A program made the translations under genes and the position numbers. A DNA stretch of 64,000 bases from a virus (Duplodnaviria; Heunggongvirae; Uroviricota; Caudoviricetes): IMG/VR virus record IMGVR_UViG_3300023174_004816, positions 1 to 64,000 of that record. One strand, 5' to 3'. Positions 29,645-54,275 of the stretch are shown here, piece after piece (the stretch's first letter is position 1; the number at the start of each line of letters is the position of its first letter). The notes under the pieces were generated by a model. It had not been told where the DNA came from. It was given only the letters and a program-made list of their open reading frames with translations, and did no database searches.

Positions 29645-29818
29645 TACTCCTTAAAAGAGTATATCATGGATGTCATTCCAATGAATGAGGATTATACGAT
29701 CCATAATATACTATGATATTATGGTCTTGTCCGGAACCTATTTCCTTATGCACCGAGCCGTTAAGCCGAATTGACGACGCATAAAACTCTTATATTAAGA
29801 GTGGACTACTCCCCATGC
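29645..29818 (-). ncRNA. candidate yybP-ykoY (Mn2+) riboswitch in the TerC leader
   Basis: Minus-strand leader begins UGGGGAGUAG (29806-29815), then the hairpin CUCUUAAUAUAAGAG, then GGACAAGACC; the expression platform AUACUCUUuuaAAGGAGUAU sequesters the SD; ykoY itself is TerC-family. Confidence 0.45.
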
Positions 29819-36265: not shown

Positions 36266-37532
36266 AACCACGCAGTCTGCGGATCAACGGCACAGTCATT
36301 TTGAGAATCTCTTGTTTTTCTGGTGTAAACCATTCAGGTGAATTCTTTCGTAGCCATTTCAGTCGATCCCAATGGTAGTCTGGGCTTAACTGACCCTGAT
36401 GTTGATCCCAGGCCTGTGCAACATTTTCTTTGAGTTCGTCAACAATGGTCTTTAAGAAATCAGGATTGAAAAATCTTTCTTGATTTCTTTTGGCTATTGC
36501 CCGACATTCATCAATCATGAGATTTTGTTGAGATTTTGGCAACTGAGATATTCTACGCATCTCTGTTGTTATAGCTATTATACGAGCCTGGCTGTCTTTG
36601 ATGTCATCGTAGGCTTCGTTGATCCAGGGGCCAAATGTTTCAAATCCATATCGTCTTAACAGTGCCAAACTGCCTGAGCCAGCGGCCAATATAAAAGGAT
36701 GTCCGCATGCGATGGGTCTTAATACTTTTTCTGTGAGATGTATCCTATCATCAAACACTGTTTCCAATACCACACTAAATGCAGTATGATTCAGATCTTG
36801 AGCACTGTAGATCGCGCTGTGATTTGATGTTACTTGTTGAGCATCAACCGATCCAATTTGACAGTGCTGTGTTAAATCACAAATCAAATTTAAAAAATCT
36901 TTTCGATATTGTCGCGATCCAGTTAAGTCACGTGCATAGACTAAAAATAATTTTTCAGGAACAATGTGCTGTAACGACAAATCGTGCTGAGCATATCTAT
37001 ACCAGTCCAATGCAATCACAGCGTGACTCCACCAGTATGCTCCGACATATTTTCCAGTGTTTTCATATTTTACCAATTCTGCAGAGTCAAGCTCACTGTG
37101 TAACAATGTCCATTTTTTCTGCCAGGATGATGGTATGATATTTCTTAAATTAAAATTTTCATGAGGGTAAGATGACTCGTTGGTTGTGCTTTGTCTAAAT
37201 CTTTGCATAAACTCACTGTGGTCTTGATAAAATTCAAAATTCAATGGTTCTTGATCACAACAAACCAAAACAGGTTGATAGCTTCTTACCTGTACATAGT
37301 ATGGCATATGAGGCAATGCTGTTGGAAACACCTGATGTATTGTTCTGAATTGTTTTGGGATTCCATTGGGCACATCAAGATCAACAAATCCATCTGCTTC
37401 GTGAATGTCAAGTTGATAATCTCTAAGATCAGCAAGCTCTTTGCTACCCCAGGGATAGGTTCTCAAAATCCAGTATCGTTTTTCTGTGACCTGGTGTACA
37501 AAATCGTATAAATTATGTGAAGGAACCGTCAT
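36258..37532 (-). CDS. hypothetical enzyme, possibly a GT-B-fold glycosyltransferase
   Basis: C-terminal E...RPIACGHPFILAAGSGS resembles the GT1 nucleotide-sugar-binding motif; 424 aa. Confidence 0.35.
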   Translation of the reverse strand: MTVPSHNLYDFVHQVTEKRYWILRTYPWGSKELADLRDYQLDIHEADGFVDLDVPNGIPKQFRTIHQVFPTALPHMPYYVQVRSYQPVLVCCDQEPLNFEFYQDHSEFMQRFRQSTTNESSYPHENFNLRNIIPSSWQKKWTLLHSELDSAELVKYENTGKYVGAYWWSHAVIALDWYRYAQHDLSLQHIVPEKLFLVYARDLTGSRQYRKDFLNLICDLTQHCQIGSVDAQQVTSNHSAIYSAQDLNHTAFSVVLETVFDDRIHLTEKVLRPIACGHPFILAAGSGSLALLRRYGFETFGPWINEAYDDIKDSQARIIAITTEMRRISQLPKSQQNLMIDECRAIAKRNQERFFNPDFLKTIVDELKENVAQAWDQHQGQLSPDYHWDRLKWLRKNSPEWFTPEKQEILKMTVPLIRRLRGST

Positions 37533-37533
37533 A

Positions 37534-38781
37534 ATGGAGGATACAATGAATATAGGTTTTATTGGTTTAGGTAAACTGGGATTGGACTGCGCAGAAGTCT
37601 TTGCTGAACGTTACTCAGTTTACGGATATGATATATATCCACGCTACAGCGAATCTGTAAAAGTTTGCACCAACGTTGAGGAAGTGATTGATCACAGCGA
37701 TTGGTTGTTTATTGCTGTGCCCACACCACACGCTGAAGGCTATGATGGCAGTGTACCAAGCTCGCACATGGAGCCCCGAGACTTTGGGCATGACGCTGTA
37801 AAAGAGGCCATTGGGTATATCAATACCTATGCCAAAGAACCCAAACGTGTTGTGCTAATTTCCACGGTACTGCCAGGCACCACACGCAGACATTTTGCTA
37901 CCTTGCTGGACAATCGTCATCAGTTCCTTTATAACCCGTATCTTATTGCCATGGGGTCAGTGAAGTGGGACATGGCCAATCCAGAAATGGTCATGATTGG
38001 CACAGAAACAGGCGATCCGTCAGAGATGCGTGATCTCATTGATCTATATCGTCCGCTGATGAAAAACAACCCACGCTATGTCACAGGCACCTGGGATGAG
38101 TGCGAAGCCATCAAGATTTTCTACAACACATTCATCAGTGCCAAGGTTGGTCTTGTGAACATGATCCAGGACTTTGCGTTGAAAATTGGCAACATCAATG
38201 TAGACGTTGTAACAGATGCTCTGGCACAATCAACCATGCGCATCATGGGTCCAAAATACATGACCGCAGGCATGGGCGATGCAGGTGCTTGCCACCCCAG
38301 AGATAACATTGCCCTGCGTTGGCTGGCCGAAGAGTATGACATTGGCTACGACTTGTTTGATACCATTATGGCAGCTCGCGAAGTGCAGGCAAAAAATATG
38401 GCACTGTTTCTGGTTGAACAAGCTCGCAAACGCAATCTACCCATAGTTGTTCATGGCAAAGCCTACAAACCAGATGTGCCTTACTGTATTGGCAGTTACT
38501 CTACATTGATTGGATACTATATCAATGAAGCTGGATTCTCGGTGAGCTATTTAGATCCTCTAGCCGATGATGACACTGATGTGATACAATCAGTCAAAGG
38601 CGCTTGTATTTTGTTAATGGCGCACAATAGACAGATCACTTATGGATATACCGGTGATGTACGTGATGATACTTTCTATGCTCCTATTGAAGCTGGATCA
38701 GTGATCGTTGATCCTTGGCGTAAACTAAATGACATGGCGGGCTACGAAATTATCCACTATGGCAACACAAGAAAATCCTAA
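37534..38781 (+). CDS. UDP-glucose/GDP-mannose dehydrogenase-family protein
   Basis: N-terminal Rossmann IGFIGLGKLG, catalytic-Cys region GDAGACHPRD (cf. GGSCFPKD), C-terminal GKAYKPDV (cf. AFKPNTDD). Confidence 0.55.
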   Translation: MEDTMNIGFIGLGKLGLDCAEVFAERYSVYGYDIYPRYSESVKVCTNVEEVIDHSDWLFIAVPTPHAEGYDGSVPSSHMEPRDFGHDAVKEAIGYINTYAKEPKRVVLISTVLPGTTRRHFATLLDNRHQFLYNPYLIAMGSVKWDMANPEMVMIGTETGDPSEMRDLIDLYRPLMKNNPRYVTGTWDECEAIKIFYNTFISAKVGLVNMIQDFALKIGNINVDVVTDALAQSTMRIMGPKYMTAGMGDAGACHPRDNIALRWLAEEYDIGYDLFDTIMAAREVQAKNMALFLVEQARKRNLPIVVHGKAYKPDVPYCIGSYSTLIGYYINEAGFSVSYLDPLADDDTDVIQSVKGACILLMAHNRQITYGYTGDVRDDTFYAPIEAGSVIVDPWRKLNDMAGYEIIHYGNTRKS

Positions 38782-39298
38782 GCGTTGGACAAAGACCTGG
38801 ATTGAACCTTGGTGGGTCAGTCATGGGTCTTTGCCTTATGTCAATGAACCTTTCAATGATTTAGAGAGTCTGACATTGTGGAGAGAACTGGGTTACACAC
38901 AAACCAAGTTCACTGGTGACATGTATGACATGCGTAATCCTGAGCCAGGGTGGATCAATCCTTTTCGCCGGGTATTTCCCTGGCAACACTTCTCGTGGTC
39001 AGTGTACAAAATGACACCAGGGTGTGTGTTACCTAACCACGCTGACACCTATGCTCGCTTCAAACGTCTTTATAACATTGCCGATGATGACAGTATATAC
39101 CGAGCAGTGGTACTGTTGGAAGATTGGCAAAGCGGACATTATTTTGAAATAGATGGTTGCGCTCAAACTAATTGGATCGCTGGTGATACGTTTATTTGGC
39201 AGAGTGATGTCAAACACCTGGCTGCCAATGTGGGCATGACCGATAGATATACATTACAAATAACTGGAGTTCCTGTTGAAAATCCATTCCTTCAATGA
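38759..39298 (+). CDS. hypothetical cupin-like protein
   Basis: 180-aa ORF overlapping the dehydrogenase end; beta-rich; assignment tentative. Confidence 0.3.
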   Translation: MATQENPKRWTKTWIEPWWVSHGSLPYVNEPFNDLESLTLWRELGYTQTKFTGDMYDMRNPEPGWINPFRRVFPWQHFSWSVYKMTPGCVLPNHADTYARFKRLYNIADDDSIYRAVVLLEDWQSGHYFEIDGCAQTNWIAGDTFIWQSDVKHLAANVGMTDRYTLQITGVPVENPFLQ

Positions 39299-40196
39299 GT
39301 GGGATCCACTGAAGAGCATTATAGTTGGCAGTGCCCGACACGCCAACTGGCCCACCAACGATCCTGTGTTTGCACTGGAAAGTGAAAAAACGCTGTGGAA
39401 AGAAACACCCGTGCCTGGTGGTCCTGTGCCTGGGTGGATCATTGACGAAGCTGAAGCAGAACTTGATGATCTTGCTGTTAAACTAACACAACTGGGAGTC
39501 GAAGTGCATCGTCCAACAGAGATGGACTTTGTGGCACTGAACGGTATGTACAACTACTGCCCTAGAGACAGATTGTTGGTTGCCGGAACTACCATAGTTG
39601 ATCCTGCCATGATGTATCCCTGCAGAGACATGGAACTGTCGGCCTACTACGATGTGGTTGACGCCGCAGAGCACTATCTGCACATGCCTCGCAACGAAGG
39701 CATGACCTTGGATGCTGCCAATGTTTGTAGACTCAATGACACTTGGTTGTATCTGGAAAGTGCATCGGGCAATCGAGCTGCCTATGATTGGCTCTGCAAG
39801 CAGTTTCCCAACATCACGATAGAACTCTGTAATTTTTACGCTGGTGTGCATATTGACTCTACCATAGTTCCGCTACGTGAAGGTTTGGTCTTGGTCAATG
39901 CGGCTCGTGTTACATCAGAAACATTGCCCCAGGCATTCCGGGACTGGGAAGTGCTGTACGTGGATACAGTGGTGGAACAGGGCTTTTATCAGTACCCGTA
40001 TGCTTCCAAGTGGATTGCGTTAAATATGTTAGTGGTTAATCCTACTACAGTAATCATGGATGCAGATCAAGCCGAACTGCGCTATGCATTGGAAACTCGT
40101 GGATTTGAAGTAATACCACACAAATTAAGCCATAGTCGTACCCTGGGAGGAGGATTCCATTGTGTGACTTTGGATCTATGGAGAGAACATGCTTGA
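39276..40196 (+). CDS. amidinotransferase (StrB1/inosamine-phosphate amidinotransferase/GATM family)
   Basis: FNEWDPLKSIIVG N-terminus, YCPRD, VHIDSTIVPLREGLVLVN, and C-terminal catalytic-Cys motif SHSRTLGGGFHCVTLD collinear with StrB1. Confidence 0.8.
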   Translation: MKIHSFNEWDPLKSIIVGSARHANWPTNDPVFALESEKTLWKETPVPGGPVPGWIIDEAEAELDDLAVKLTQLGVEVHRPTEMDFVALNGMYNYCPRDRLLVAGTTIVDPAMMYPCRDMELSAYYDVVDAAEHYLHMPRNEGMTLDAANVCRLNDTWLYLESASGNRAAYDWLCKQFPNITIELCNFYAGVHIDSTIVPLREGLVLVNAARVTSETLPQAFRDWEVLYVDTVVEQGFYQYPYASKWIALNMLVVNPTTVIMDADQAELRYALETRGFEVIPHKLSHSRTLGGGFHCVTLDLWREHA

Positions 40197-41484
40197 CGCA
40201 AATTTAGTCGCACAAATGGTAGAACAAGAAATACGTTCTGCTGTGAACCAACAGGTACAACAAGCTGTGAGCCAAACTGCTTGGCTTGAAGAACTTGAAA
40301 ACCAAATCATTGAATTTGTACAGGCTCGTATATACGCAAGATTCAGTAGCATTGGCACAGTGCCAGATCTAGTTGATGCTGTGGAGAAAAGTGTTGGGCG
40401 TATGTTTGAACAGGGATTTGTTCCTGACCTCAACGCCTATGTTGACCAGGAACGCATACGTCAAACTGTGGACTTGGCCATTGAACGATTCATTGAGCAT
40501 ACAATTGATTCCTTGAGCATTGATCCTGTGTGGGTCACAAAGATAGAAAATCTCATTGCACAGCGCACCGAAGATAGAATACGTGCTCGTCTAAGAGAAA
40601 TAGATCTCAATCAAGCAGTGGAATCTGCAATAGTACAAAACAAAGAAATCATTGCTCGAGAAATACGCAAAGATTTTCAATCAGCAGGCATAACTGATCT
40701 TGCCACAGCCAAACAACTCACTGTGATGGATGGTGTGGTTGTAGTCGAAGGTGAAACAGTCACTAGAGATCTTGTGGTAGAACGCGACACCACGCTCAAT
40801 GGATCGGTATTGATCAAGGGCAGTTTGGGTGTGCAGGGCAAAATTGCTGTGGACAATGAAACCTGGCAAGAACTCAGCGAGTATGTTGGCACAGTCACGT
40901 ACGATCGTATCAAACATGATTTTGCCAACGAGCTCATGAACACTGTGATTGAGTCCACCAAGGATGGCATAGACATCAGCAACATCACAGTCAATGGATC
41001 GCCCTTGGTTGCAGGCGATCGTCTCAGCCACGGCATAACAAAAAGCAATCTGTCATTGGTGGGCACACTGGAATCATTGGCAGTGAAAGGACAGACTAGT
41101 TTGCATGACACCATGCACGTGGTCAAAAACAGAGTGGGTATCAACACTGAAGATCCAGACAGTGCCCTGGCTATCTGGGATGAAGAAGTCAATGTCAGTG
41201 CAGGCAAACTCAGCAAAAATGTTGGCTTTGTGGGCACTGGTCGTAAACAAAACCTTGTGTTAGGTACCAACAGGCAAAATCACATAGAGATTGATGCAGA
41301 AGGTCTTACAACCATCCAACGATTGCGTGTTGGCCGTAACAATATCTCTTGGGCCACAGAAGTACCTAACTACAGTGGAACCAAAGGTGACATAGTGTTC
41401 AATCTCAATGTTGCTCCAGATGCTCCATTTGCCTGGTCCTGTCTTGGCGCATTTCGTTGGCAAGCATTGAAAGCCGCTAAATGA
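40189..41484 (+). CDS. hypothetical protein (coiled-coil N-terminus, beta-rich C-terminus; possibly structural)
   Basis: 431-aa ORF overlapping the previous stop. Confidence 0.4.
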   Translation: MLDANLVAQMVEQEIRSAVNQQVQQAVSQTAWLEELENQIIEFVQARIYARFSSIGTVPDLVDAVEKSVGRMFEQGFVPDLNAYVDQERIRQTVDLAIERFIEHTIDSLSIDPVWVTKIENLIAQRTEDRIRARLREIDLNQAVESAIVQNKEIIAREIRKDFQSAGITDLATAKQLTVMDGVVVVEGETVTRDLVVERDTTLNGSVLIKGSLGVQGKIAVDNETWQELSEYVGTVTYDRIKHDFANELMNTVIESTKDGIDISNITVNGSPLVAGDRLSHGITKSNLSLVGTLESLAVKGQTSLHDTMHVVKNRVGINTEDPDSALAIWDEEVNVSAGKLSKNVGFVGTGRKQNLVLGTNRQNHIEIDAEGLTTIQRLRVGRNNISWATEVPNYSGTKGDIVFNLNVAPDAPFAWSCLGAFRWQALKAAK

Positions 41485-42029
41485 GGACTTGTTGGATTGT
41501 TGCGGACGAGTTTGCCAGCACCCACATTGAACCAGAACAAATAAAAAAGATAGCACCTGTATGGGGATCCTGGCGCACCTGGCGGGCTTGGGGCACAGAC
41601 AATGTACTGTGTCATGATATGACCAAGGCACAGGAACTTGTGCAACGAGCTTTTCAAGCAGTTTGTAATTTTTACACCGCCAGCAAAAATTATGCCACTG
41701 TGGGTCGCCCTCAGAGAGTAAATCTCTACGAAGGCGACTTTCCTGGCGAATTGGATCATCCTGAAGAAATCATTGCCATGCATCTAGTGGCCGAAAACAA
41801 TGATTTGGTTTTGCTATTGGGCTACAATTTGTCCGAAATCACAGTCGAAGACAAATATCAACGTCATAAACAGCTGAATTACCAAAATGCCTTTCGTGCT
41901 ACCTTAAATACCTACCCAAATGTGCAGTTTGTCCTAATTGATCATCCAGATTCTTTGGCCAAAAGTTTCCAAAATATATCAAATATCACTTGCGATAAAT
42001 TTGAAAGCGTGTTACAATTACTTAATTGA
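41481..42029 (+). CDS. hypothetical protein
   Basis: 182-aa ORF, ATGA-type overlap. Confidence 0.4.
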   Translation: MRTCWIVADEFASTHIEPEQIKKIAPVWGSWRTWRAWGTDNVLCHDMTKAQELVQRAFQAVCNFYTASKNYATVGRPQRVNLYEGDFPGELDHPEEIIAMHLVAENNDLVLLLGYNLSEITVEDKYQRHKQLNYQNAFRATLNTYPNVQFVLIDHPDSLAKSFQNISNITCDKFESVLQLLN

Positions 42030-42048: not shown

Positions 42049-43074
42049 ATGACTGCTCGTATAGGCTTCTGTTGCAAATGGCTCAATGATCCGTCCGAAT
42101 GTGGCGGCATGAAAGTCAATGCCAAGGACCGTGATCTCAACGGTCGATCAACTACCATGCGTTGGCTACGCGAACACCGAGACGAAGCCGAACAACGTCA
42201 ATGGGATATCATGAATCACAATGCCGCGGCAGCTCTAAAAATGGTAGAACGTGTGGGTAGTTTACCAGAACATCTGCGCATGGTACGTCTGGGTTCCGAA
42301 ATGCTACAAGGGTACACTGAACCTTCATGGATTGATTGGTGGCAACAAGCAGATATCCAACGTCACCTAGAAAAGATTTTTGCCCCTGTGGGTGCCCGCG
42401 CCAGAGAGTTGGGAGTGCGACTGAGCTTTCATCCAGGACAGTTTTGTGTGCTGGCATCAGAAAATGATGGAATTGTGGAACGCAGTATTCTTGAATTTGA
42501 ATACCATGCAGACATGGCTCGTTGGATGGGCTATGGTAGTACCTGGCATGATCATGGATTTATGATCAACATACACCTGAGTGGACGAGGGGGCCCAGAA
42601 AAGTTTCTGCGCAGTCTTGACAAACTCTCTCCTGAGGCTAGAAACCTTATAACTATAGAAAACGACGAGATATCAAATGGCTTGGACATTACTCTTACTG
42701 TGGCTGATCGTGTGGCTCTTGTGTTGGACATTCATCACCATTGGGTCAACACCGGCGAATACATTGATCCCAAAGACAGTCGTGTTCAGCGTGTGGTTGA
42801 GTCTTGGCGTGACATTCGCCCTGGTATGCATTACAGTGTTAGTCGCGAAGATATTCTTGTTGATCATGATCCCCGAGTTCGCCCAGATCTTGCTGGACTT
42901 CTTGCACGAGGTTATAAAAAACAAAAGCTCCGGGCACATTCCGACTTCTATTGGAACTCAGCTGTGAATGAATGGGCTGGCGGTTTTACTGATCAGTTTG
43001 ACATTGAGTGCGAAGCCAAAGGTAAAAATCTAGCACGTGATGGCTTTGTTGAATCTATAAAAATACATGCTTGA
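42049..43074 (+). CDS. uvsE: UV damage endonuclease UvdE/UvsE family
   Basis: RIGFCCKWL (cf. RFGFVS), SFHPGQFCVLAS (cf. SFHPNQFT), INIHLSG, ITIENDE and VLDIHHHW (cf. VFDFHHF) are collinear with B. subtilis UvsE. Confidence 0.7.
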   Translation: MTARIGFCCKWLNDPSECGGMKVNAKDRDLNGRSTTMRWLREHRDEAEQRQWDIMNHNAAAALKMVERVGSLPEHLRMVRLGSEMLQGYTEPSWIDWWQQADIQRHLEKIFAPVGARARELGVRLSFHPGQFCVLASENDGIVERSILEFEYHADMARWMGYGSTWHDHGFMINIHLSGRGGPEKFLRSLDKLSPEARNLITIENDEISNGLDITLTVADRVALVLDIHHHWVNTGEYIDPKDSRVQRVVESWRDIRPGMHYSVSREDILVDHDPRVRPDLAGLLARGYKKQKLRAHSDFYWNSAVNEWAGGFTDQFDIECEAKGKNLARDGFVESIKIHA

Positions 43075-43357
43075 TATTTTTCAAAATACCTGGAAGTGGA
43101 TCTATGAAGATTACTCAAGTAATAGAATTCGTTTTTGTCTTGAGGTCCTTGCTTGGGCTATTAGCATTGGGTGTTCTGTCGTTATGGCATTCACCGTTCC
43201 AACACCACCTCTACTGGTTCTCTACCCTGTCTGGATACTGGGTTGTGCTATATATGCTTGGTGCGCTCTTAGTCGGGGTTCCTTTGGCATGCTGGCTAAT
43301 TACATACTGCTCACAACCATCGATGCCATTGGATTGATCAGGATGCTTGTTTCTTAG
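43067..43357 (+). CDS. small membrane protein (one of two overlapping same-strand ORFs)
   Basis: ATG within CATGCTTGA overlaps the uvdE stop; 3 hydrophobic segments. Confidence 0.3.
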   Translation: MLDIFQNTWKWIYEDYSSNRIRFCLEVLAWAISIGCSVVMAFTVPTPPLLVLYPVWILGCAIYAWCALSRGSFGMLANYILLTTIDAIGLIRMLVS

Positions 43358-43565
43358 CTCTGGTAGATTTGGCTCGAACAGCAGGTTTCTTTTCGCCAGC
43401 AGGCTTTTTGGCAGCTGGTTTTTTCTTGGCTGGAGCAATGGACTCAACTGCGGCCTGTGTGGCTTGGGTTGATACAGGCGTAGGTGCTTCAACTTTATAA
43501 GGTACTTCAGGGCAAGGCGAAACTGTGGGTTTGGAACCAAAAAACTTTTTCAAAAATGACAACAT
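43338..43565 (-). CDS. Lys/Ala/Pro-rich histone H1-like small basic protein
   Basis: C-terminal PAKKKPAAKKPAGEKKPAVRAKSTRAKKQAS; strong AAAGGAG-N7-ATG RBS on the minus strand. Confidence 0.55.
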   Translation of the reverse strand: MLSFLKKFFGSKPTVSPCPEVPYKVEAPTPVSTQATQAAVESIAPAKKKPAAKKPAGEKKPAVRAKSTRAKKQAS

Positions 43566-43630
43566 TTCTATCTCCTTTATTGGGTAATCTATTTAATCCT
43601 ACTCTATTAAAACACATTAAATATCGTGCA

Positions 43631-43900
43631 ATGTACAATACTTTCTTCAAACTTTTAACTCTTGAACTTTTCTTAAAGACTGTTGCTGAGCATCGAGCTG
43701 ATCTTTTAAACGACCTTAAAGATCATGGGTGCGATCCAGTGCGACGTATGCGTCGTATACGTATGTTGGCTCAGCTCTCGCAGTACGAAGCCGATATAAT
43801 CAAAAAAATTGATTCTTTTGAAACCGATGACTGCAAAGAATGGTTGGACTATTCTTTGCTAATGGACACAGTCATTGACATTACCAACAGATCAGCATGA
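43631..43900 (+). CDS. hypothetical protein (start uncertain)
   Basis: The ORF-track start 43484 would overlap the well-supported minus-strand gene; internal ATG 43631 chosen. Confidence 0.3.
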   Translation: MYNTFFKLLTLELFLKTVAEHRADLLNDLKDHGCDPVRRMRRIRMLAQLSQYEADIIKKIDSFETDDCKEWLDYSLLMDTVIDITNRSA

Positions 43901-45042
43901 ATACTGCGCTCTATGTTAACCCACTTTATTTTCATAAACTAGCAGAAATGAAAGGCTTGTCTGTGGAAAAGGCTGGATCTGTTCCGGTGCTGACGCAGGG
44001 CTTTGAGTCATATAAAAAACTAGTACGTATTAACTCTGTGTTTTCAAATGCTCCTCGAGGATTCCCATCCGACAGAACAGGGACAATCACACCGCCGATC
44101 AAATTTCATGTGCCGCGAGCCTGGTCTCGACCCACTGAACCAATGACACTGGATCGGGCCATGCAGATGAGGGTCGAAGAAATAGAGTCAAAAAGACAAC
44201 GCATCAATGTAATGTGGTCCGGGGGAATAGATTCCACTGCTGTGGTCAATGCTTTTTTGTTGCACCTCAAAGATCCCAAACAACTACGTGTGATATATTC
44301 TCCCTACTCAGAATATGAACACAGACACTATCTACAATATCTCAAGGATCGCGGCGTTGAAACAGTAGACATGAGTGGCACTGTGTATCTTGACAGTTAT
44401 TTTGATGGTATATTTGTCACAGGGTTTGGTGGCGACGAATCTCATGCCAGTTTAGACGAAAGTTTTTTGTTGGAGTACGGTCATGAAGTTTTGAATCGTC
44501 CTTGGAAAGAGTTTTTCTGGAAGAAAACGCAAGACGATGATTTTATGGATTTCTGCGAAATGTATTTTAATCTAGCAGGTCGGGAAATCAAAACTGTGTT
44601 GGAAGCTCGTTGGTGGTTCTATATCAACAGCAAGATGCACATACTTTTACAAATGCAAAATATTTTTTGGTCTGACTATCCAAACTACAGCAAAGATCTT
44701 GTGCTGGGATTTTATGACTGTGACCCTTACGAACAGTATGTGACTTGCAATGAAATTGTTGCTTCAAAGGACTACAGCTCCTGGAAACAAAATCTCAAAG
44801 ATTATTGTTTCAGAGCTGACGGGCTGGAAGATTGGCACAAAAACAAAACCAAGGTTATTAGTTCACAAATCAACTACTATACCAATAAAAAAATTGCATT
44901 AAAAAATCTGCATTGTATTTTTATTCTAGACAACGGTAAACGTATTGCCACTCCAGGACTTCCTTTGTTCTCAAAACTAGAATACAACAAATACCACGGA
45001 ACTACCCTGGATTATCTTTGGAATGAGCCTGAACAAGTTTAA
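43897..45042 (+). CDS. PP-loop ATP pyrophosphatase family protein (asparagine synthetase/QueC/TilS-like)
   Basis: VMWSGGIDSTAVV is the SGGxDS PP-loop; 381 aa. Confidence 0.6.
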   Translation: MNTALYVNPLYFHKLAEMKGLSVEKAGSVPVLTQGFESYKKLVRINSVFSNAPRGFPSDRTGTITPPIKFHVPRAWSRPTEPMTLDRAMQMRVEEIESKRQRINVMWSGGIDSTAVVNAFLLHLKDPKQLRVIYSPYSEYEHRHYLQYLKDRGVETVDMSGTVYLDSYFDGIFVTGFGGDESHASLDESFLLEYGHEVLNRPWKEFFWKKTQDDDFMDFCEMYFNLAGREIKTVLEARWWFYINSKMHILLQMQNIFWSDYPNYSKDLVLGFYDCDPYEQYVTCNEIVASKDYSSWKQNLKDYCFRADGLEDWHKNKTKVISSQINYYTNKKIALKNLHCIFILDNGKRIATPGLPLFSKLEYNKYHGTTLDYLWNEPEQV

Positions 45043-46018
45043 TGCTCCCTGGCACCCGTTGAAACAAACCTGGGTTGGGGCAACTTATGCCCCAGAATTT
45101 TATCAACCTATTCGAGATCACAGAGTAAGAGAATCACTGCAACAAATAGCAAGAGAAACAGAAGAAGATTATCAAGGCCTTGTTGAGACATTGACTGCAT
45201 TGGGTGTGACAGTAAAGAGGCCAGAGATTGATCAGTCAAAGACCATAATGGACTACGTGGACCAACAAGGTCAATTAAAGTTCAGTAACTCTCATAGTTA
45301 TACTTTGATACCCAGACCTCCCATGCAACCGCGTGACAGTTTGTTGATTGTGGGCGAAGAGATGATAGCCACACAGCAAGAAGCTCAATGGTTTTACACT
45401 GACTGTGAACAAGCACCTTACAGTTTTGATGCGCCCATGGTCACAGTGATTGGTAATCATCTGATTGCTGACAGTAGAGACTATCCTTGGTTGCCCAGCT
45501 ATCTCAATGATAGATTTCCTGATCGCAAAGTTGTTCCTGTGGCAATAGGCGGACACAATGATGCTGTGTTTTGTCCTGTGCGACCTGGACTAATAGTCAG
45601 CAGTTATCATCACGACAACTACACCAATACCTTTCCTGGGTGGGAAGTCAAGTATATAGAAAATCAAAGTTGGAACGCCATTCCACAGTGGAGAAAATTC
45701 AAACATTCAAACGTGGACAAATGGTGGGTGCCTGACAGCAACAACAATCCTGAGTTTTCAAACTTTGTAGACACTTGGTTAAGTAACTGGTTGGGCTATG
45801 TCAAAGAAACAGTGTTTGACGTCAACATGTTGCAGATAGATGAAAGCACAGTGTTGGTCAATAACTACAATCGTGAAATGTTTGATTTTTTTAAATTAAA
45901 ACGCATTGAACCAGTGATAGCTACCTTCCGGCACAGATTTTTCTGGGATGGGGGCATCCATTGCGTCACTGGTGATACCTATAGAGAAGGAGAAGCTGAT
46001 GACTTCATTGCAGTCTGA
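45023..46018 (+). CDS. amidinotransferase-superfamily protein (second copy, divergent)
   Basis: C-terminal FWDGGIHCVTGDTYRE (GG-x-HC-x-T catalytic Cys motif); N-terminus PWHPLKQTWVG analogous to NEWDPLKSIIVG. Confidence 0.5.
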   Translation: MSLNKFNAPWHPLKQTWVGATYAPEFYQPIRDHRVRESLQQIARETEEDYQGLVETLTALGVTVKRPEIDQSKTIMDYVDQQGQLKFSNSHSYTLIPRPPMQPRDSLLIVGEEMIATQQEAQWFYTDCEQAPYSFDAPMVTVIGNHLIADSRDYPWLPSYLNDRFPDRKVVPVAIGGHNDAVFCPVRPGLIVSSYHHDNYTNTFPGWEVKYIENQSWNAIPQWRKFKHSNVDKWWVPDSNNNPEFSNFVDTWLSNWLGYVKETVFDVNMLQIDESTVLVNNYNREMFDFFKLKRIEPVIATFRHRFFWDGGIHCVTGDTYREGEADDFIAV

Positions 46019-46535
46019 CCCAGATAATATTTTGTTGGGTAAAATACCCTACATTCCCACATGGCCGTTGAACATACATATTCGTCCAGTGTTGCTCAAA
46101 GATTATAAAGTTTGTGATATTGTGGAAGCGTGGGACTATCATGATCTTGATGATTATCGAAAGATTTGGATCACGGTTGAACACAATAACAAAGCTATTG
46201 TAAAAGAAAAACTTGAAGAACCTGTTTTTTACAAAATTGACATAAGAGATGACGAACCCAGCGATCATTCTTTAACTGTGTTTATACACGACAAGACCGA
46301 TGATCACAGTTGTTTTGACGGCGAAACATCAATAACAGTTGCAGTTGAAATAAAAATTGAAATAGATGATATTCCAACCAATCTTCTCAATCCTGTATTT
46401 TTTAAAACAATTCCTCTTTTAATCGGTGAAAACGAAAAACAATACACAGCTCAATTCCAAACTCCAATTTTTCGTTATATGATCGAAAACTGGGGTAGCG
46501 TGGTCTACAAAGATCTTAAAGATATAAGTAACTGA
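45999..46535 (+). CDS. hypothetical protein
   Basis: AGAAGGAGAAGCTG-ATG RBS; the ORF track starts at 45948. Confidence 0.4.
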   Translation: MTSLQSDPDNILLGKIPYIPTWPLNIHIRPVLLKDYKVCDIVEAWDYHDLDDYRKIWITVEHNNKAIVKEKLEEPVFYKIDIRDDEPSDHSLTVFIHDKTDDHSCFDGETSITVAVEIKIEIDDIPTNLLNPVFFKTIPLLIGENEKQYTAQFQTPIFRYMIENWGSVVYKDLKDISN

Positions 46536-47248
46536 TGTTGACATTATTCTTATATATCCTGGTGATGACACACATCACCATAGCTTGTGTTACACTTTAT
46601 CTGCATCGCAGTCAAGCACATAGAGGTGTGACATTTGACCCACGAGTGAGTCATTTCATGCGTTTTTGGCTATGGCTCACAACAGGCATGGTCACCAAAC
46701 AGTGGGTGGCCACACACCGTAAGCATCACAGATTCACTGATGCAGAGGGTGATCCACACAGCCCTAAAAACGAGGGCATTTGGCAGATCTTGCTGGGCGG
46801 TGCTTTCTACTATGCCTGGGCAGCCAAAGATCGCCAAATGGTGGAACAGTATGGCGCGGGCACTCCTGACGACTGGATGGAACGCCAGGTCTACACACCA
46901 TTTAACTTTGTGGGCATAGTGTTGATGTTTTTTATCAACTGCATGATATTTGGCTGGGCCTGGGGATGGTTGCCCTGGCTATGGCAAATGATTTGGATTC
47001 CGCTGTGGGCCGCTGGAGTGATCAACGGATTGGGGCACTGGTGGGGATATCGCAACACCCAAACCCGAGACTACTCCACCAACATTGTGCCCTGGGCATT
47101 CTTTATTGGTGGAGAAGAACTACACAACAATCACCATGCTGATCCAGCTAGTCCCAAACTCAGCGTGAAGAAATGGGAATGGGATCTGGGCTGGACCTAT
47201 ATCAAAGGTCTGGAACGATTTGGTCTAGCAACCTTACGCACAAACTGA
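46535..47248 (+). CDS. membrane fatty-acid (acyl-CoA/acyl-lipid delta-9 type) desaturase
   Basis: Three His boxes: HRSQAHR, HRKHHRFTDAEGDPHSP and HNNHHADP. Confidence 0.8.
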   Translation: MLTLFLYILVMTHITIACVTLYLHRSQAHRGVTFDPRVSHFMRFWLWLTTGMVTKQWVATHRKHHRFTDAEGDPHSPKNEGIWQILLGGAFYYAWAAKDRQMVEQYGAGTPDDWMERQVYTPFNFVGIVLMFFINCMIFGWAWGWLPWLWQMIWIPLWAAGVINGLGHWWGYRNTQTRDYSTNIVPWAFFIGGEELHNNHHADPASPKLSVKKWEWDLGWTYIKGLERFGLATLRTN

Positions 47249-47284
47249 TTTAGCCAAAATCCATAATATTGGTATATATTTTTG

Positions 47285-47383
47285 TTGCATTGCAACATAA
47301 CTATCATATATAATAGTTCAAAGGAGATGCCGCATAGGGTGGGTCTCCTAGCAGTAAACTCGCTTAACCTAAGGAGAAACACT
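47285..47383 (+). promoter_or_regulatory. promoter TTGCAT-18-TATAAT (with a GTTGCATTGCAAC palindrome) plus a leader hairpin containing a decoy SD
   Basis: -35 at 47285-47290 and -10 at 47309-47314; leader hairpin AGGAGA...TCTCCT precedes the real SD TAAGGAGAAAC. Confidence 0.5.
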
Positions 47384-47659
47384 ATGTTTTCATATGACGC
47401 GACAATCGATGCAGTACAAACCGGTAAGAAGCAATTTGTAAAAACTTTCATCACAGACGAAAAGATTGCAGACGCACTCAACCAATTTATTGACAACCAA
47501 ACTGAGTACACCAAAAAAGCTGTCAAAGCTACTTTGGATGCAGGTACCACTGTAGTTCAAGAAACTGTCAAGCACAGCCAAGAAGCTGCCAAGTTTGATT
47601 ACACCAAATTTGGTGAAGGTATCATGAAGGCCTATTCAGCCCAAACCAAAGGCAAGTAA
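47384..47659 (+). CDS. small hypothetical protein (likely highly expressed)
   Basis: 91 aa; strong promoter, AAGGAGA RBS and a downstream terminator. Confidence 0.5.
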   Translation: MFSYDATIDAVQTGKKQFVKTFITDEKIADALNQFIDNQTEYTKKAVKATLDAGTTVVQETVKHSQEAAKFDYTKFGEGIMKAYSAQTKGK

Positions 47660-47693
47660 ATCGGTAAAATTCGGTTAACTTTCTGATAGACCA

Positions 47694-47738
47694 GAAAATC
47701 CTACTTGTGTAATAATACACACATGGTAGGATTTTTTA
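47694..47738 (+). terminator. rho-independent terminator
   Basis: AAAATCCTAC...GTAGGATTTTTT stem with a T-run. Confidence 0.6.
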
Positions 47739-47761
47739 TGACCAATCTTTTGGGAGAATCT

Positions 47762-47884
47762 ATGAAGCACTTGGTTATTGCATTATTTGTGGCCTGTTTG
47801 ACAGGTTGTGGTACGGTTGGAGGCATGGTTTCCGGTGCTGGTTCCGATCTTTCTAAAGCCGGAGAATGGATCAAATCTAAATGA
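47762..47884 (+). CDS. entericidin-like small lipoprotein (40 aa)
   Basis: MKHLVIALFVACLTGCGTVGGMVSGAGSDLSKAGEWIKSK resembles EcnA/EcnB (LTGCNTARGFGEDIKHLG); GGGAGA RBS; ATGA-coupled to the next gene. Confidence 0.45.
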   Translation: MKHLVIALFVACLTGCGTVGGMVSGAGSDLSKAGEWIKSK

Positions 47885-48561
47885 AAAAGACAGCACTCTA
47901 TCTTGCCCTGGTCACTGCCCTGGGTCTTACGGCCTGTAGTTCAACCAAGACCGCTGATGTGGGATCTGGCAATGCAGTGCCACCAGGCGCACAACAAGCC
48001 ATTTCTGAACAACGTGCGGCATCAGACTTCAAACGTGAAGGTGTGCGAGTGATCTATTCGTTCACTGGCAATCTTGAAGCAGTGGAGGCTGTGGGCTATG
48101 CTCCGGTGTGGGGCAACAGTCAAAATGCTGTCCAGCAAGCCTACGAAACAGCGTATGTATTGGCCAAGGATCGCATGAGCTCATTCCTGCATCCAGAAAC
48201 TCTTACATCCAAGCGTGTGGTAGATACCATTGCCAAGAACTTGGAAAAAGCCCGTGACAACAAGACCAACAAGTTTGCCACAAACAAAAATCAAGACTTT
48301 GCGTTTGAAACCGCAGACACTGATGTGGCCCGAGAAGGCGAAGTCAATCGCGAAGAAAACACAGCGGTGCGCAATGATGCACTCAACATCGCGTCAAACA
48401 TCCGTACCACAGTGAGCATCCAGCGTTCAGGTATCTTGGGCGGTGTGGTACTCAAAGAAGGCCGAGTGATCAATGACGGCAAAAATGTACAAGTGATTGT
48501 GCGTTGGGATCGCAAAGACAACAGCCAGCGTCGTGTGGTCCTTAAAGAAATGATGCAGTGA
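47881..48561 (+). CDS. lipoprotein, function unknown
   Basis: Signal peptide plus lipobox LTACSS. Confidence 0.5.
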   Translation: MKKTALYLALVTALGLTACSSTKTADVGSGNAVPPGAQQAISEQRAASDFKREGVRVIYSFTGNLEAVEAVGYAPVWGNSQNAVQQAYETAYVLAKDRMSSFLHPETLTSKRVVDTIAKNLEKARDNKTNKFATNKNQDFAFETADTDVAREGEVNREENTAVRNDALNIASNIRTTVSIQRSGILGGVVLKEGRVINDGKNVQVIVRWDRKDNSQRRVVLKEMMQ

Positions 48562-49751: not shown

Positions 49752-50333
49752 ATGTCAGCGATGATTCAAGAAAAAGACGATCTTACATACTCTCCGGGTG
49801 ACGATCTTAAAAAGAGCGGCATCTATACCTTCATGGGCGATGTTGATTCAGAATCCATGTTGCCCATTATCGAGTGGATTTTGCACGAAAATTACATTGT
49901 CAAGAAAAAGAAAAAAGAACTGATCTTGATGATCTGTAGCAACGGTGGCGACATGGAAAATGCCTTTGCACTAATTGATGTAATGAAGAGCAGTGGTATA
50001 CCTATCAAAACAGTAGGACTGGGACAAATAGCCAGTTGCGGACTGTTGATATTCCTAGCAGGAACTCATGGTCGTAGAGTTCTTACACCCAATACATCAA
50101 TATTGAGTCATCAGTATTCATGGGGCAGTGACGGCAAGCATCACGAGCTATTTGCTATAACCAAAGAGTTTGGCTTGGCACAGCAACGTATGATCGATCA
50201 TTACTGTGAAACCACAGGGCTAGATGAAGAAACTGTTAAAACAAAATTGTTGCCACCCAATGATGTTTGGCTCAGTGCTCTAGAAGCCAAAGAACTAGGT
50301 GTCTGCGATCACATCGCACACATCATACGTTAA
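49752..50333 (+). CDS. divergent ClpP-family (S14) protease paralogue
   Basis: GLGQIASCGLLIFLAG (cf. GQAASMG) and SHQY (cf. IHQP) retain the Ser/His positions. Confidence 0.55.
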   Translation: MSAMIQEKDDLTYSPGDDLKKSGIYTFMGDVDSESMLPIIEWILHENYIVKKKKKELILMICSNGGDMENAFALIDVMKSSGIPIKTVGLGQIASCGLLIFLAGTHGRRVLTPNTSILSHQYSWGSDGKHHELFAITKEFGLAQQRMIDHYCETTGLDEETVKTKLLPPNDVWLSALEAKELGVCDHIAHIIR

Positions 50334-51907
50334 AAACTTTTTCTTTTCTTGCGCCCAAAAGCACTGGCATCATCTGCTGGTGCTTTTTGTTTTGTGTCTG
50401 CGGCTTTGATGTCACTACGTGGTGGAATAAAGTCGACAAGTTCACCTGCACGACTTGGTCCTGGTGCATCTGTTGTGGCGCCTTGCTCTACGTTAGGCAC
50501 TGCTTTGGGTTCTTTGTTGATGTTGAATACCAACTTACCACCTGAGCTAGAAGTTGAACTATAGCTCTTTTGAGCTTCTAGTGTAACGTTGGTAAACAGT
50601 TTGCTGGGCCATACAGTGGTGAATCCCTTGATCACAAACTGATCACCCTTTTGTGTGGCATCAGTATACATCTGTACAAAAGCTGAATTATTAAGAATGT
50701 CAGCGGCTGCTTCTGAAAAGTTAGTTTTGGTATTGATCTCGTTGCATACCTTGTAGGCAATTGAAGCCACCATGTGATTGAGTGGGACTACTTTGCTAGG
50801 ATCTTCTGCTGTGCGCTCTTTGTATATTTTCTTTAGATTGTCACTGAGATTAGTGTCGTCAATGTCAAACCCGGGTTGCCCTGCATATTGTTTTAAACTC
50901 ATTACTTGTTCTGCTTCGTTCCCATCAATCATGTCTAGATTGATAGCCAATTCCAATGGACCGCTGTCATGATTGCCTTTGTCAATTATTTCCAGTATCT
51001 CAATAATTTCTTGATAGGGTTCTATAATATTGCCCAATCCGGCTTGTTCAAGTTCACGTGCAGATTTAAGCAAGTTAATCACCGATGCCATGGCACCTTT
51101 GGCGCCTTTGCTGGATAGTTTGATCTGTTTGCCTTCTGGATTGACCAAGAGAGAATCATACAGCGTACCTGACACATTGGTGTTAAAACTCACAACGCAG
51201 TCTGCAAATCCATTTTGACCCATAAACACTTCAGCGGCCTTGGCAGCATTGCCTTTGACTGGAGCACCATTGATCAGCACACAGGGCTGTAGCATCTCGC
51301 AGAAGTAATCGCGGAACCCTTTGAAGTCCATGTTGCCTGCTGGAACCAGCACAGGAAACTGTGTGGCATCAACAATGATCAAGGCCGCATTGTATTCATC
51401 ACTTTGATCACCAAACTTGGCAGCAATCTGTGACAATATAGTATCAGGTGTTTGACTACGAAAATCTGTCAACACATCACTGGGCTTGTAACCAGCTTTT
51501 TCTTTGGATCCGCGAGCATCAGTTTGACTGAACCCGCCGGGTATGTCTTTGGTTTGGAAAAATGTATTCTGTGTACGTACAGGTTTGATGTCTGAGGCAA
51601 ATTTTACTAGGTATCTACGACCCACATAGGTATCAAAGCTGGCAACACCAAATGCTCGTGTTCTAGATGAAGGTTGATTGACTTTTTCAAACTTTCGACC
51701 CATCTCTGTTTCCAGTTGATCCAGTATGTCAAGCATTTCTTCCATGCTGTCGTATGCTCCAGATTCTGGATAAAAATCCAGACTTTGAAAAGTTATTTTA
51801 TCGTCGTCGGCATCACTGCCAATACGAGCATATATTTCGCCAGGTTTACGGGCACTCAAACCACGAGATTCTGACAAGGTGTCAACTAGATTTAGTAAGT
51901 CTCTCAT
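50330..51907 (-). CDS. hypothetical 525-aa protein between the two clpP paralogues
   Basis: Long minus-strand ORF; no recognisable motif. Confidence 0.5.
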
Positions 51908-51968
51908 TGCAATTCTTTTCTATGTATGCTATACTTATCTAGGATACTTACATTATCAAGGAGAAATA

Positions 51969-52562
51969 ATGCCAAATTTTGTGCCAACCGTGCTAGAAAA
52001 AACCTCAAACGGTGAACGTGCTTACGACATTTACAGTCGCTTACTCAAAGACCGGGTGATCATGTTGGACACTGATGTCAACGAACACTCAGCTTCGCTG
52101 ATCGTGGCACAGATGCTGTTTTTAGAAGCAGAAAATCCAGACAAAGATATCTCATTTTACATCAATAGCCCAGGCGGTGTTATCACAGCTGGTATGGCTA
52201 TCTATGACACCATGCAGTTTATCAAGTGTGATGTGCAGACCATTGTCATGGGTCAGGCCTGTAGCATGGGTAGTTTCCTAGCCACAGCAGGTGCCGCAGG
52301 CAAACGCATGATGTTGCCTTATGCACGACACATGATACATCAACCATCAGGTGGCGCTCGTGGTATGCAAAGCGACATTGAAATCCAGTACAAGGAAATT
52401 ACCAAGATGAAACACATCCTTACTGAACTGTATGTCAAACATAACACAGCAGGCAAGACCTATCAAGACTTTGAACGTGACATGGATCGTGATACATTTA
52501 TGTCAGCTCAAGAAGCTTTGGCGTATGGTCTGATAGATCGTATTATCGAACATCGAGAATAA
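51969..52562 (+). CDS. clpP: ATP-dependent Clp protease proteolytic subunit ClpP (canonical)
   Basis: [29 protein letters not shown] (Ser) and MIHQPSGG (His); AAGGAGAAATA-ATG; the ORF-track start 51879 is probably too far upstream. Confidence 0.88.
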
Positions 52563-53851
52563 TGAGTTTCAAAGATAACTTTTGTCCAAGCCCATGGTTA
52601 CACACTAGAATCAACAATGTTGGTAACTATGAGTTTTGTCGATGGGCAGTCAAGCACGACCGACAGGAGCTTCCAAGCATAACGACACAAAGTCCCATTC
52701 ATTGGTTCCAGCATGGAATGCGTGACCTGCGTCAGCAAATGCTTGATGGTGAAAAGATTGATGGCTGTGCAGAATGTCATACCATGGAACAACACGGCAA
52801 GGTTTCAGGACGACAACGTCAATTACTTAAGATTGGGGTGACACTCGAAGACTTTGAAAAAACTATGTTGAGTTCCCCGTGGCTCAACGAATTTAAAAAT
52901 ACCAAGTCTAAAAACGGATTCACTGATCAGTTACCGCAAGACTGGCAGATTGACCTTGGAAATTTTTGTAACAGTGCCTGTGTTTTTTGTAGTCCTCACT
53001 CAAGTTCTCGCATGGCCAGTGAGTTTAAAAAAATTGGAATCATTGATCGATTACCGCCAAGTTCTTGGTGTGATGATCCGGCCAGTCTTGAATTGTTTAC
53101 TAGAACATTAGAAAATACTCCCAAACTAGCGTACTTGCATTTCATTGGTGGCGAGACTTTGATTACACCAGCCTTTAAGGTAATACTGCAAACGTTGATC
53201 AACAATGGGTTGAGTTCGAAGATTGGCCTGGGATTCACTACCAATCTCACAGTTTGGGATCAGAGCATTGTTGATCTTTTGGTCCAGTTCAAAGAAATCA
53301 ATCTTGGGTTGAGTATAGAATGTGTTCACCCTCTCAACGACTATGTACGGTACGGTGGCAAAATAGATCAAACCATGGCAATACTAGAGAGATGGCTGGA
53401 AGTAGCCAAATCTAATTCATGGCTATCACAGTTACGCATCACGCCCACCATGCTGAGCATTTGGCATTTAGATACAGTGTACGAATATGCCATGGAACGA
53501 GAATTATCAATTGAAAGCTGTAATTTTTTAAGCGATCCTGTTTTTATGCGTCCTAGTGTGCTACCAATGGAATATAGATCAATGATTCTATCAAAACTAA
53601 ACAATTGGATAGCAAAATATTCACAGCAATCTACAAAAACAATAGTCAACACCAGAGACCCAAACAACGCAAAAAATCAAGTTTTACTGGATGCCCAAAG
53701 TTATGTCAATTATCTGATCAACGAGCCCGATGAAAGTTATAGATTGCCCGAGTTGGTTGACTATTTGAAAAAATTAGAACAGAGTCGTAAAAACAACATA
53801 CTGGATTACCTACCTGAATATGAACAACTTCTTAGATCTGTTGGATACTGA
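52562..53851 (+). CDS. radical SAM enzyme with an N-terminal Cys-rich (Zn-ribbon/SPASM-like) region
   Basis: CNSACVFC CxxxCxxC motif; additional Cys cluster CPSPW...C..C..CAEC; ATGA overlap with clpP. Confidence 0.6.
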   Translation: MSFKDNFCPSPWLHTRINNVGNYEFCRWAVKHDRQELPSITTQSPIHWFQHGMRDLRQQMLDGEKIDGCAECHTMEQHGKVSGRQRQLLKIGVTLEDFEKTMLSSPWLNEFKNTKSKNGFTDQLPQDWQIDLGNFCNSACVFCSPHSSSRMASEFKKIGIIDRLPPSSWCDDPASLELFTRTLENTPKLAYLHFIGGETLITPAFKVILQTLINNGLSSKIGLGFTTNLTVWDQSIVDLLVQFKEINLGLSIECVHPLNDYVRYGGKIDQTMAILERWLEVAKSNSWLSQLRITPTMLSIWHLDTVYEYAMERELSIESCNFLSDPVFMRPSVLPMEYRSMILSKLNNWIAKYSQQSTKTIVNTRDPNNAKNQVLLDAQSYVNYLINEPDESYRLPELVDYLKKLEQSRKNNILDYLPEYEQLLRSVGY

Positions 53852-54275
53852 CTGTCAGATTAACGTGACTTTGAAACTGGGAGTGATCCATGACAATGGC
53901 TACCCCGGAGTCTCTGTCAGAGTCAATGATAATGTGATTGAATACCTACAACTAACAAAATCAGTGGAGCATCAATTTGATATTCCATTGTTAGATCCTA
54001 TAGAGATTGAAATATCTATCAAAGACAAACAGTATTCAGAAATTAAGGAAACCGCTGTTTTGATAGATTCAATGAACATTGACGGTTTTGAGATAGTCCC
54101 GCAATGGACTCACCTTGCTGAATACCACAGTGAACGTGGTTTACAAGGACCCACGTCATATCTAGGAATCAATGGCAGTTGGAAGTTGACCATAGATCGG
54201 CCATTTTATCAATGGCGACATCATGTTACCGATCAAGGTTGGTTGCTGGAACCTATTTCTTACGAGGAAAGTTGA
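53820..54275 (+). CDS. hypothetical protein
   Basis: 151-aa ORF overlapping the radical SAM end. Confidence 0.4.
   Translation: MNNFLDLLDTDCQINVTLKLGVIHDNGYPGVSVRVNDNVIEYLQLTKSVEHQFDIPLLDPIEIEISIKDKQYSEIKETAVLIDSMNIDGFEIVPQWTHLAEYHSERGLQGPTSYLGINGSWKLTIDRPFYQWRHHVTDQGWLLEPISYEES

Follow-up and report, generated by a model that had tools for sequence, protein, structure and literature searches.

A phage cassette that couples an AsnB-class PP-loop protein to an amidinotransferase and two partner proteins

What would a large phage make with an enzyme of the amide-forming PP-loop type and an amidinotransferase whose genes overlap? The question is raised by positions 43631 to 47248 of IMG/VR record IMGVR_UViG_3300023174_004816, a Caudoviricetes virus of which we analyzed positions 1 to 64,000 (here called the window). 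A PP-loop ATP pyrophosphatase gene and an amidinotransferase gene, ATase-2, lie there in a compact cassette with the genes for two small proteins, c1 and c10. Our preferred reading, to which we give roughly even odds (a probability of about 0.5), is that the two enzymes act in one pathway, joining ATP-dependent amide formation on a carboxylate to the transfer of an arginine-derived amidino group.

A coupled set of two enzymes and two partner proteins

The gene order is c1 (43631..43900), the PP-loop gene (43897..45042), ATase-2 (45023..46018), c10 (45999..46535), and a desaturase gene (46535..47248), all on the plus strand and with stops overlapping starts. The TGA stop of c1 is inside the ATG of the PP-loop gene (ATGA), the PP-loop and ATase-2 reading frames share 20 nucleotides (nt), as a preliminary description of this DNA had noted, and the c10 gene shares 20 nt with that of ATase-2 and a single nucleotide with the desaturase gene. 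The same description began the cassette at the PP-loop gene and overlooked both c1, which precedes it and is its most constant partner, and c10; it also placed a desaturase with three His boxes directly after the amidinotransferase, and while the boxes are present, c10 lies between the two genes. An alternative start for c1, an upstream TTG equivalent to position 43577, is chosen by gene callers in one relative. Scanning for promoter and terminator consensus sequences gave counts equal to shuffled expectation for the operon limits. All four soluble cassette proteins have isoelectric points (pI) of 4.7 to 6.4.

The PP-loop open reading frame (ORF; 43897-45042, plus strand, 381 aa), which contains NVMWSGGIDSTAVV, carries the SGGxDS motif reported earlier, in the form SGGIDS, at residues 108 to 113 (44218..44235, plus strand). 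This ATP pyrophosphate-binding loop lies at the end of the first Rossmann-like strand, as in other members of the PP-loop superfamily, and aligns with SGGLDS of Escherichia coli AsnB; W107, S108, G109, G110, D112, S113, and T114 are invariant in 33 PP-loop relatives. A second AsnB-type motif, GFGGDE at residues 176 to 181 (44422..44439, plus strand; compare GEGSDE in AsnB), has G176, G179, D180, and E181 invariant in the same relatives. The possibility that the loop motif is a coincidence had been raised and can be set aside, as the protein folds as a PP-loop ATP pyrophosphatase with similarity reaching beyond the motif. That likeness and the second G-x-G-x-D-E motif place it in the AsnB and beta-lactam synthetase structural class, without the glutaminase domain: there is no N-terminal nucleophile (Ntn) glutaminase domain with its Cys1, the protein starting MNTALYV and having 381 residues against 554 in AsnB. 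At the position that corresponds to AsnB Glu348 when the register is taken from the motifs, the window protein has Phe177 and the 33 relatives have mostly Asp (25), with Asn and His in three each.

The relationship to AsnB is distant at the level of sequence. Alignment of the PP-loop family with E. coli AsnB by hhalign is weak (52% probability), begins at AsnB residue 141, and extends only as far as the PP-loop. PF00733 (Asn_synthase) does not match the window protein at E<0.1 and matches 10 of the 33 relatives weakly (best 2.3e-5); the protein has no Pfam match of its own, and phmmer and profile searches of PDB sequences returned nothing real. Neither megablast with positions 43000 to 48000 nor tblastn with the PP-loop protein found a match among 50,697 phage records. 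In the metagenome collection the protein is represented by 226 protein clusters, and the wider short AsnB-like family by 1,217 representative clusters. It is presumed to be a carboxylate-adenylating, amide-forming enzyme.

ATase-2 (331 aa), whose C-terminal end is FFWDGGIHCVTGDTYREGE, belongs to the amidinotransferase family of the guanidino-group-modifying (GME-fold) superfamily, an assignment made earlier and now borne out by end-to-end alignment with solved amidinotransferases. A family profile searched against the PDB finds StrB1 (6.2e-22; profile positions 7 to 336 against chain positions 8 to 346), then HsvA, AGAT, and SxtG, and a single-sequence phmmer search already finds StrB1, HsvA, SxtG, and AGAT; no deiminase or dimethylarginine dimethylaminohydrolase (DDAH) appears at E<0.01 in the profile search. 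Sequence alignment to the solved structures matches Asp136 (nt 45428-45430), His178 (nt 45554-45556), and Cys314 (nt 45962-45964), all read on the plus strand, with D179, H227, and C332 of StrB1, so the catalytic Cys whose absence would have undone the earlier assignment is in place. It falls in the GGIHCVTGD motif already noted near the C terminus, and the triad, whose counterpart in AGAT is C407/H303/D254, is invariant in 25 ATase-2 sequences. ATase-2 has a conserved insertion of about 50 residues (residues ~213 to 262, NQSWNAIP...WWVP...ETVFDVNML) that is missing from a paralogue in the window, ATase-1 (39276..40196, plus strand, 306 aa), with which it shares 21% identity; neither paralogue has any Pfam match at E<0.1, including PF02274. 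ATase-2, which corresponds to 1,274 protein clusters in the metagenome collection, is an amidinotransferase-family enzyme with an intact triad, for which arginine-dependent amidino transfer to an amine acceptor is predicted from sequence.

Conservation of the cassette and its genomic company

Eighty IMG/VR loci around PP-loop relatives and 73 around ATase-2 relatives were compared, along with several metagenome contigs (some 150 viral contigs overall), using our own ORF calling and clustering to define neighbors. c1 is directly upstream of the PP-loop gene in all close-family loci (31 to 93% identity) that have upstream sequence, and 34 of 38 distinct close-family loci have a c10 or c60 gene, on any strand or side, no more than 1.4 kb from the PP-loop gene; in the window lineage, c10 directly follows the amidinotransferase gene. 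ATase-2 is found in only about one-third of the close PP-loop loci, scattered over the PP-loop tree. Viewed from the amidinotransferase, the PP-loop gene is immediately upstream in all eight distinct loci with an ATase-2 at least 53% identical to that of the window, and in L029/L031 a 38%-identical ATase-2-type gene is oriented divergently beside c1 and the PP-loop gene; none of about 60 more distant ATase-2 homologues has a PP-loop neighbor. Read together, the counts define a constant core of c1, the PP-loop gene, and c10, to which ATase-2 is an optional yet dedicated extra.

We interpret the two small proteins as partner or targeting subunits. c1 (89 aa, acidic, with a helical-looking sequence) is conserved over most of its length: its central region is conserved, the acidic C-terminal part varies more, and the C terminus has a loose N-R/K-S/N-A; c10 (178 aa, also acidic) is a beta-sandwich protein. 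Profile searches found no PDB relatives of either one, and neither has a recognizable catalytic motif. Conservation at the c1 C terminus is not explained by a ribosome-binding site for the next gene, as the DNA there has no Shine-Dalgarno-like run, and small proteins encoded upstream of distant PP-loop genes were rejected as c1 homologues since hhalign gave them no support. Just upstream of c1, on the minus strand, is a 75-aa Lys/Ala-rich ORF (43338-43565; PAKKKPAAKKPAGEKKPAVRAKSTRAKKQAS), and a similar-sized minus-strand gene is called at the same spot in related contigs.

A c10 paralogue of 151 aa (53820..54275, plus strand) directly follows a twitch-domain radical SAM gene (52562-53851; NCBIfam N_Twi_rSAM, 8e-78) whose product has a weak likeness to peptide maturases (TIGR04083, 6.7e-6; the mycofactocin maturase; PapB). 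Two ClpP genes (49752-50333 and 51879-52562) lie upstream of this pair and, together with a ClpX-like ATPase (19931-21130), could constitute a complete Clp protease system.

Beyond the close family, the best PP-loop relative in 185,579 bacterial and archaeal species genomes is 28% identical, and none of the PP-loop loci found in those genomes has a c1, c10, or GME-fold neighbor. Two bacterial contexts recur, one beside bicupins in Bacteroidota and the other at the ends of Mu-like prophage tail modules; some distant matches beside GidA-like genes may be from other PP-loop families, possibly TilS, and the set is heterogeneous. A cupin and a 127-aa gene beside bacterial relatives, considered as a QueE and QueD pair, are shown by Pfam to be a bicupin context. 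The Mu-like cases (L209, L213, L223, L229, and L231, from Undibacterium, Xanthomonas, and Comamonas) have distant homologues of 338 to 348 aa that end the tail module, preceded by Baseplate_J, Gp48, and a pair of ~200-aa genes. Other distant PP-loop genes follow a 2-oxoglutarate (2OG) oxygenase-like gene (L010, L048-L050, and L076), and one branch (L056-L091; 23 to 28% identity) is preceded by a radical SAM gene, an ORF of ~100 aa, and a gene for a DctP-like solute-binding protein and adjoins tail-fiber genes. Tandem arrays of three to five PP-loop paralogues (L053, L055, and L083, and also L011) lie by DctM and DctP TRAP transporter genes, with a ~156-aa ORF at the DctQ position, or by two desaturases and an AMP-binding enzyme.

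The last gene in the row codes for a short (237 aa) membrane fatty-acid desaturase of the DesA type, with His boxes HRSQAH (residue 24), HRKHH (residue 61), and HNNHH (residue 197). It is a member of Pfam FA_desaturase (PF00487; 8.4e-17, 62.2 bits against a cutoff of 29.7) and matches NCBIfam DesA_fam over model positions 9 to 240 of 385 (1.6e-110, 369.9 bits against a cutoff of 400), which falls short of a full-length match to the DesA equivalog. We rejected it as an obligate member of the cassette because relatives carry it in different places. In the window it follows the cassette; in L003 a GNAT gene intervenes, and in L004 and an NCBI contig from a metagenome-assembled genome it precedes c1. 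We regard it as a neighbor of the cassette and not a fixed member. Desaturases from other paralogue groups occur within 3 kb of PP-loop genes in four loci (L030, L043, L044, and L011), a recurrence that may be due to chance within an island of auxiliary genes.

ATase-1 is paired with a TauD/AtsK-like 2OG/Fe(II) oxygenase gene (38729..39298, plus strand) whose H104, D106, H163, and R173 are invariant, and the pair adjoins a UDP-glucose dehydrogenase gene. Relatives of this oxygenase are the ones encoded ahead of the distant PP-loop genes in L010, L048-L050, and L076. In Synechococcus phage S-SCSM2R the oxygenase-ATase-1 pair is conserved among glycosyltransferases, and the ATase-2 homologue adjoins KdsA and KdsB genes and 2OG oxygenases. 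Campylobacter phage CP220 (L166; 69926-82969) has a GME-fold gene annotated as a 'possible glycine amidinotransferase' among five radical SAM genes, with two nucleotide-diphospho-sugar transferase-like (glycosyltransferase-like) genes and a PAP2 phosphatase gene at the same locus. In the window, UDP-glucose dehydrogenase, the oxygenase, ATase-1, and proteins of 431 and 182 aa make up a block (37486-42029), followed by UvdE (42049-43074), and synteny of the block extends to all related jumbo contigs.

ATase-2 homologues of 28 to 38% identity have another setting in marine T4-like contigs (L108-L112, L116, L121-L134, L148-L152, L160, and L165), where the gene order is conserved: GTP cyclohydrolase I comes first, then a phosphoribosyltransferase, sometimes a Vut_1/YhhQ-like transporter, a PTPS/QueD-like gene or a cupin, the GME-fold enzyme, and further on a 5'-3' exonuclease. 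In those marine phages, GME-fold enzymes may be linked to pterin or 7-deazaguanine metabolism.

The window belongs to a large phage that has genes for ribonucleotide reductase subunits, DNA ligase, the ClpX-like protein and two ClpP proteins, and a tail-like protein, and the related contigs are 338 to 362 kb long. The closest cultured relatives found for any window gene are the OM43 phage Melnitz and the pelagiphage HTVC008M, through a 694-aa protein (29815-31899) that is 43% identical to the Melnitz product, annotated as 'adenylate/guanylate cyclase catalytic domain', and 36% identical to that of HTVC008M. Metabolic genes elsewhere in the window include isocitrate lyase (8680-9891; Pfam 4.9e-102, with a KKCGH motif) and IscU/NifU_N (1494-1883; Pfam 8.6e-55, with the motif present). 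Pfam also detects a class II aldolase, CsgF and a curlin-repeat protein, Hsp20, Band 7, GGACT, FecR, and a BPL_N/GATase-like protein in the window.

Proposed chemistry and candidate substrates

In the scheme that we favor, the four translationally coupled genes c1, PP-loop, ATase-2, and c10 would specify one enzyme system. Judging by its fold and motifs, the PP-loop enzyme would bind ATP at SGGIDS and adenylate a carboxylate with release of pyrophosphate, and the acyl-adenylate would then be attacked to give an amide. The nucleophile would be free ammonia or an organic amine, because the enzyme has no glutaminase domain. ATase-2, as its family and intact triad predict, would take the amidino group of L-arginine onto Cys314 with the help of His178 and Asp136, release ornithine, and pass the group to a primary amine, either one on the amide product or one that the ligase uses later; the end product would thus carry both an amide and a guanidino group. 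Where relatives have no ATase-2, the ligase module would go no further than the amide or amine. c1 and c10 would act as noncatalytic partner or targeting subunits, and the desaturase, in this scheme, would be a membrane-lipid gene apart from them, carried in the same variable island.

As the substrate, a carboxylated metabolite or sugar acid is our first choice and a peptide or protein our second; nucleic acid comes last. The first is favored because of the class of the ligase, the small-molecule chemistry of the solved ATase-2 homologues, and the sugar-related contexts of homologues in other phages.

A peptide or protein substrate is kept alive by the architecture of c1 and by the c10 paralogue beside the radical SAM gene. 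c1 could be a substrate instead of a partner, and in a scheme of RiPP-like (ribosomally synthesized and posttranslationally modified peptide) or virion-protein modification, the AsnB-like enzyme would adenylate an Asp or Glu side chain or the C-terminal carboxylate of c1 (or c10), with ATase-2 making a guanidine on Lys or Orn. Lasso cyclases and thiopeptide amidotransferases adenylate peptide carboxylates and offer a parallel, but no lasso cyclase is among the structural matches of the PP-loop protein. The fixed place of c1 immediately upstream with overlapping stop and start, its conserved center and variable acidic tail with the loose terminal motif, and the weak peptide-maturase likeness of the radical SAM enzyme preceding the c10 paralogue are all consistent with a precursor and its modifying enzymes, as are the distant PP-loop relatives in tandem arrays or beside radical SAM genes and small ORFs. 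We note, however, that c1 has no recognizable leader or cleavage motif and is conserved over most of its 89 residues, that the module has no protease or RiPP recognition element-like gene, and that StrB1, HsvA, AGAT, and SxtG are all small-molecule enzymes. The S-SCSM2R homologue of ATase-2 was found in the virion proteome (PMC12801897), which would fit modification of a virion protein. Overall, we consider this explanation unlikely, though it has more to recommend it than those that follow.

The product might also be an amide-linked guanidino group placed on a macromolecule, whether a DNA base of the phage, a tRNA base of the host, a protein of the virion, or a glycan or lipid of the envelope, with c1 or c10 as the carrier or targeting subunit. 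We think this quite unlikely, and to our knowledge, modification chemistry with an arginine-derived amidino group has not been described for any phage.

Hypermodification of DNA or tRNA was one of two functions suggested in the preliminary description, the other being small-molecule biosynthesis, and while the coupling of a PP-loop enzyme with an amidinotransferase that it recognized has proved to be a dedicated adjacency, this substrate is the one that we rank lowest. In this scheme, the target of activation by the PP-loop enzyme would be a base carbonyl or a carboxylated base (e.g., 7-carboxy-7-deazaguanine), and the amidinotransferase would form an amidine or guanidine on phage DNA or on tRNA. 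The chemistry of the family permits this, as in TilS, QueC, and GMP synthetase, and remote ATase-2 homologues do lie beside GTP cyclohydrolase I, phosphoribosyltransferase, YhhQ-like, and PTPS/QueD-like genes, but those homologues never have a PP-loop neighbor. The kinship to QueC and TilS proposed earlier does not hold either: the fold is that of the AsnB class, NCBIfam gives no QueC or TilS match, and the C-terminal tRNA-binding domains of TilS are not found in the protein. TiaS, which was named alongside them, is not known as a PP-loop enzyme. The search for TGT- or DpdA-like genes that had been recommended came up empty, with no TGT/DpdA, QueC/D/E, FolE, or hydroxymethylase in a Pfam sweep of the remaining window ORFs, and no TGT/DpdA, QueD/E, FolE, or hydroxymethylase in the 20-kb flanks of relatives; the genome is about 340 kb long and the window covers 64 kb of it, so such genes may lie elsewhere. 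Moreover, no nucleic acid-binding domain was found, the four soluble proteins are acidic, and the cassette is in an auxiliary-metabolic-gene island and not among replication genes. Modification of nucleic acid is therefore very unlikely in our estimation.

Plain nitrogen metabolism, in which the PP-loop protein is an ammonia-dependent asparagine synthetase, the two GME-fold proteins catabolize arginine, and independent auxiliary genes happen to sit together, would agree with public labels on the relatives ('asparagine synthase', 'glycine amidinotransferase', and 'dimethylarginine dimethylaminohydrolase', besides 'hypothetical protein') and with a region holding many unrelated metabolic genes (isocitrate lyase, IscU, and an aldolase, among others), but it is highly improbable given how far the protein has diverged from AsnB, its dedicated partners, and the confinement of the family to phages.

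Relation to known systems

Both enzymes are from known superfamilies, and nothing here is categorically new. The literature that we searched yielded lists of auxiliary metabolic genes and the S-SCSM2R paper and nothing else, with no account of a glutaminase-less AsnB-like family that has c1 and c10 as partners or of its pairing with a dedicated amidinotransferase. The evidence points to a dedicated phage system with two nonenzymatic partners and not to the ordinary nitrogen metabolism that the source annotations imply. The cassette is common in large aquatic phages and is absent at orthologue level from the bacterial genomes scanned, and discovery of the substrate would explain what a sizable part of viral dark matter does; the outcome could be a new amide or guanidino natural product, or a surface or macromolecular modification made during infection.

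The cassette proteins resemble characterized systems to different extents. The desaturase resembles the acyl-lipid Delta-9 desaturase DesA in its FA_desaturase domain, three His boxes, and DesA family match, but the match stops at position 240 of the 385 in the model and the gene is mobile within the island; lipid desaturases are also known from cyanophages. With QueC, Gat-QueC, and ArcS (7-deazaguanine and archaeosine) and TilS (lysidine), the PP-loop protein shares membership in a superfamily that forms amides, amidines, or nitriles on a carbonyl carbon. ATase-2 has the Asp-His-Cys triad and the C-terminal GG-x-HC-x-T-x-D motif of StrB1 (1bwd), HsvA (5wpi), AGAT (1jdw), and SxtG (6u1r), and differs from them in its ~50-residue insertion, in having no PF02274 match, and in being tied to a PP-loop ligase, a linkage that we know of for no characterized amidinotransferase.

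The closest relatives of the PP-loop protein are the synthetase domain of AsnB, the glutaminase-inactive beta-lactam synthetase (1jgt) and carbapenam synthetase (1q15), and the hydroxyamidotransferase TsnB9 (7ylz), with identities of about 11 to 14%. These enzymes adenylate a carboxylate and release pyrophosphate. In contrast to them, the window protein, at 381 aa, has an Ntn glutaminase domain that is gone or vestigial, and its family is variable at the Glu348-equivalent position as placed by the motif register, is always accompanied by the 89-aa helical-looking protein and usually by the beta-sandwich protein, and is confined to phages.

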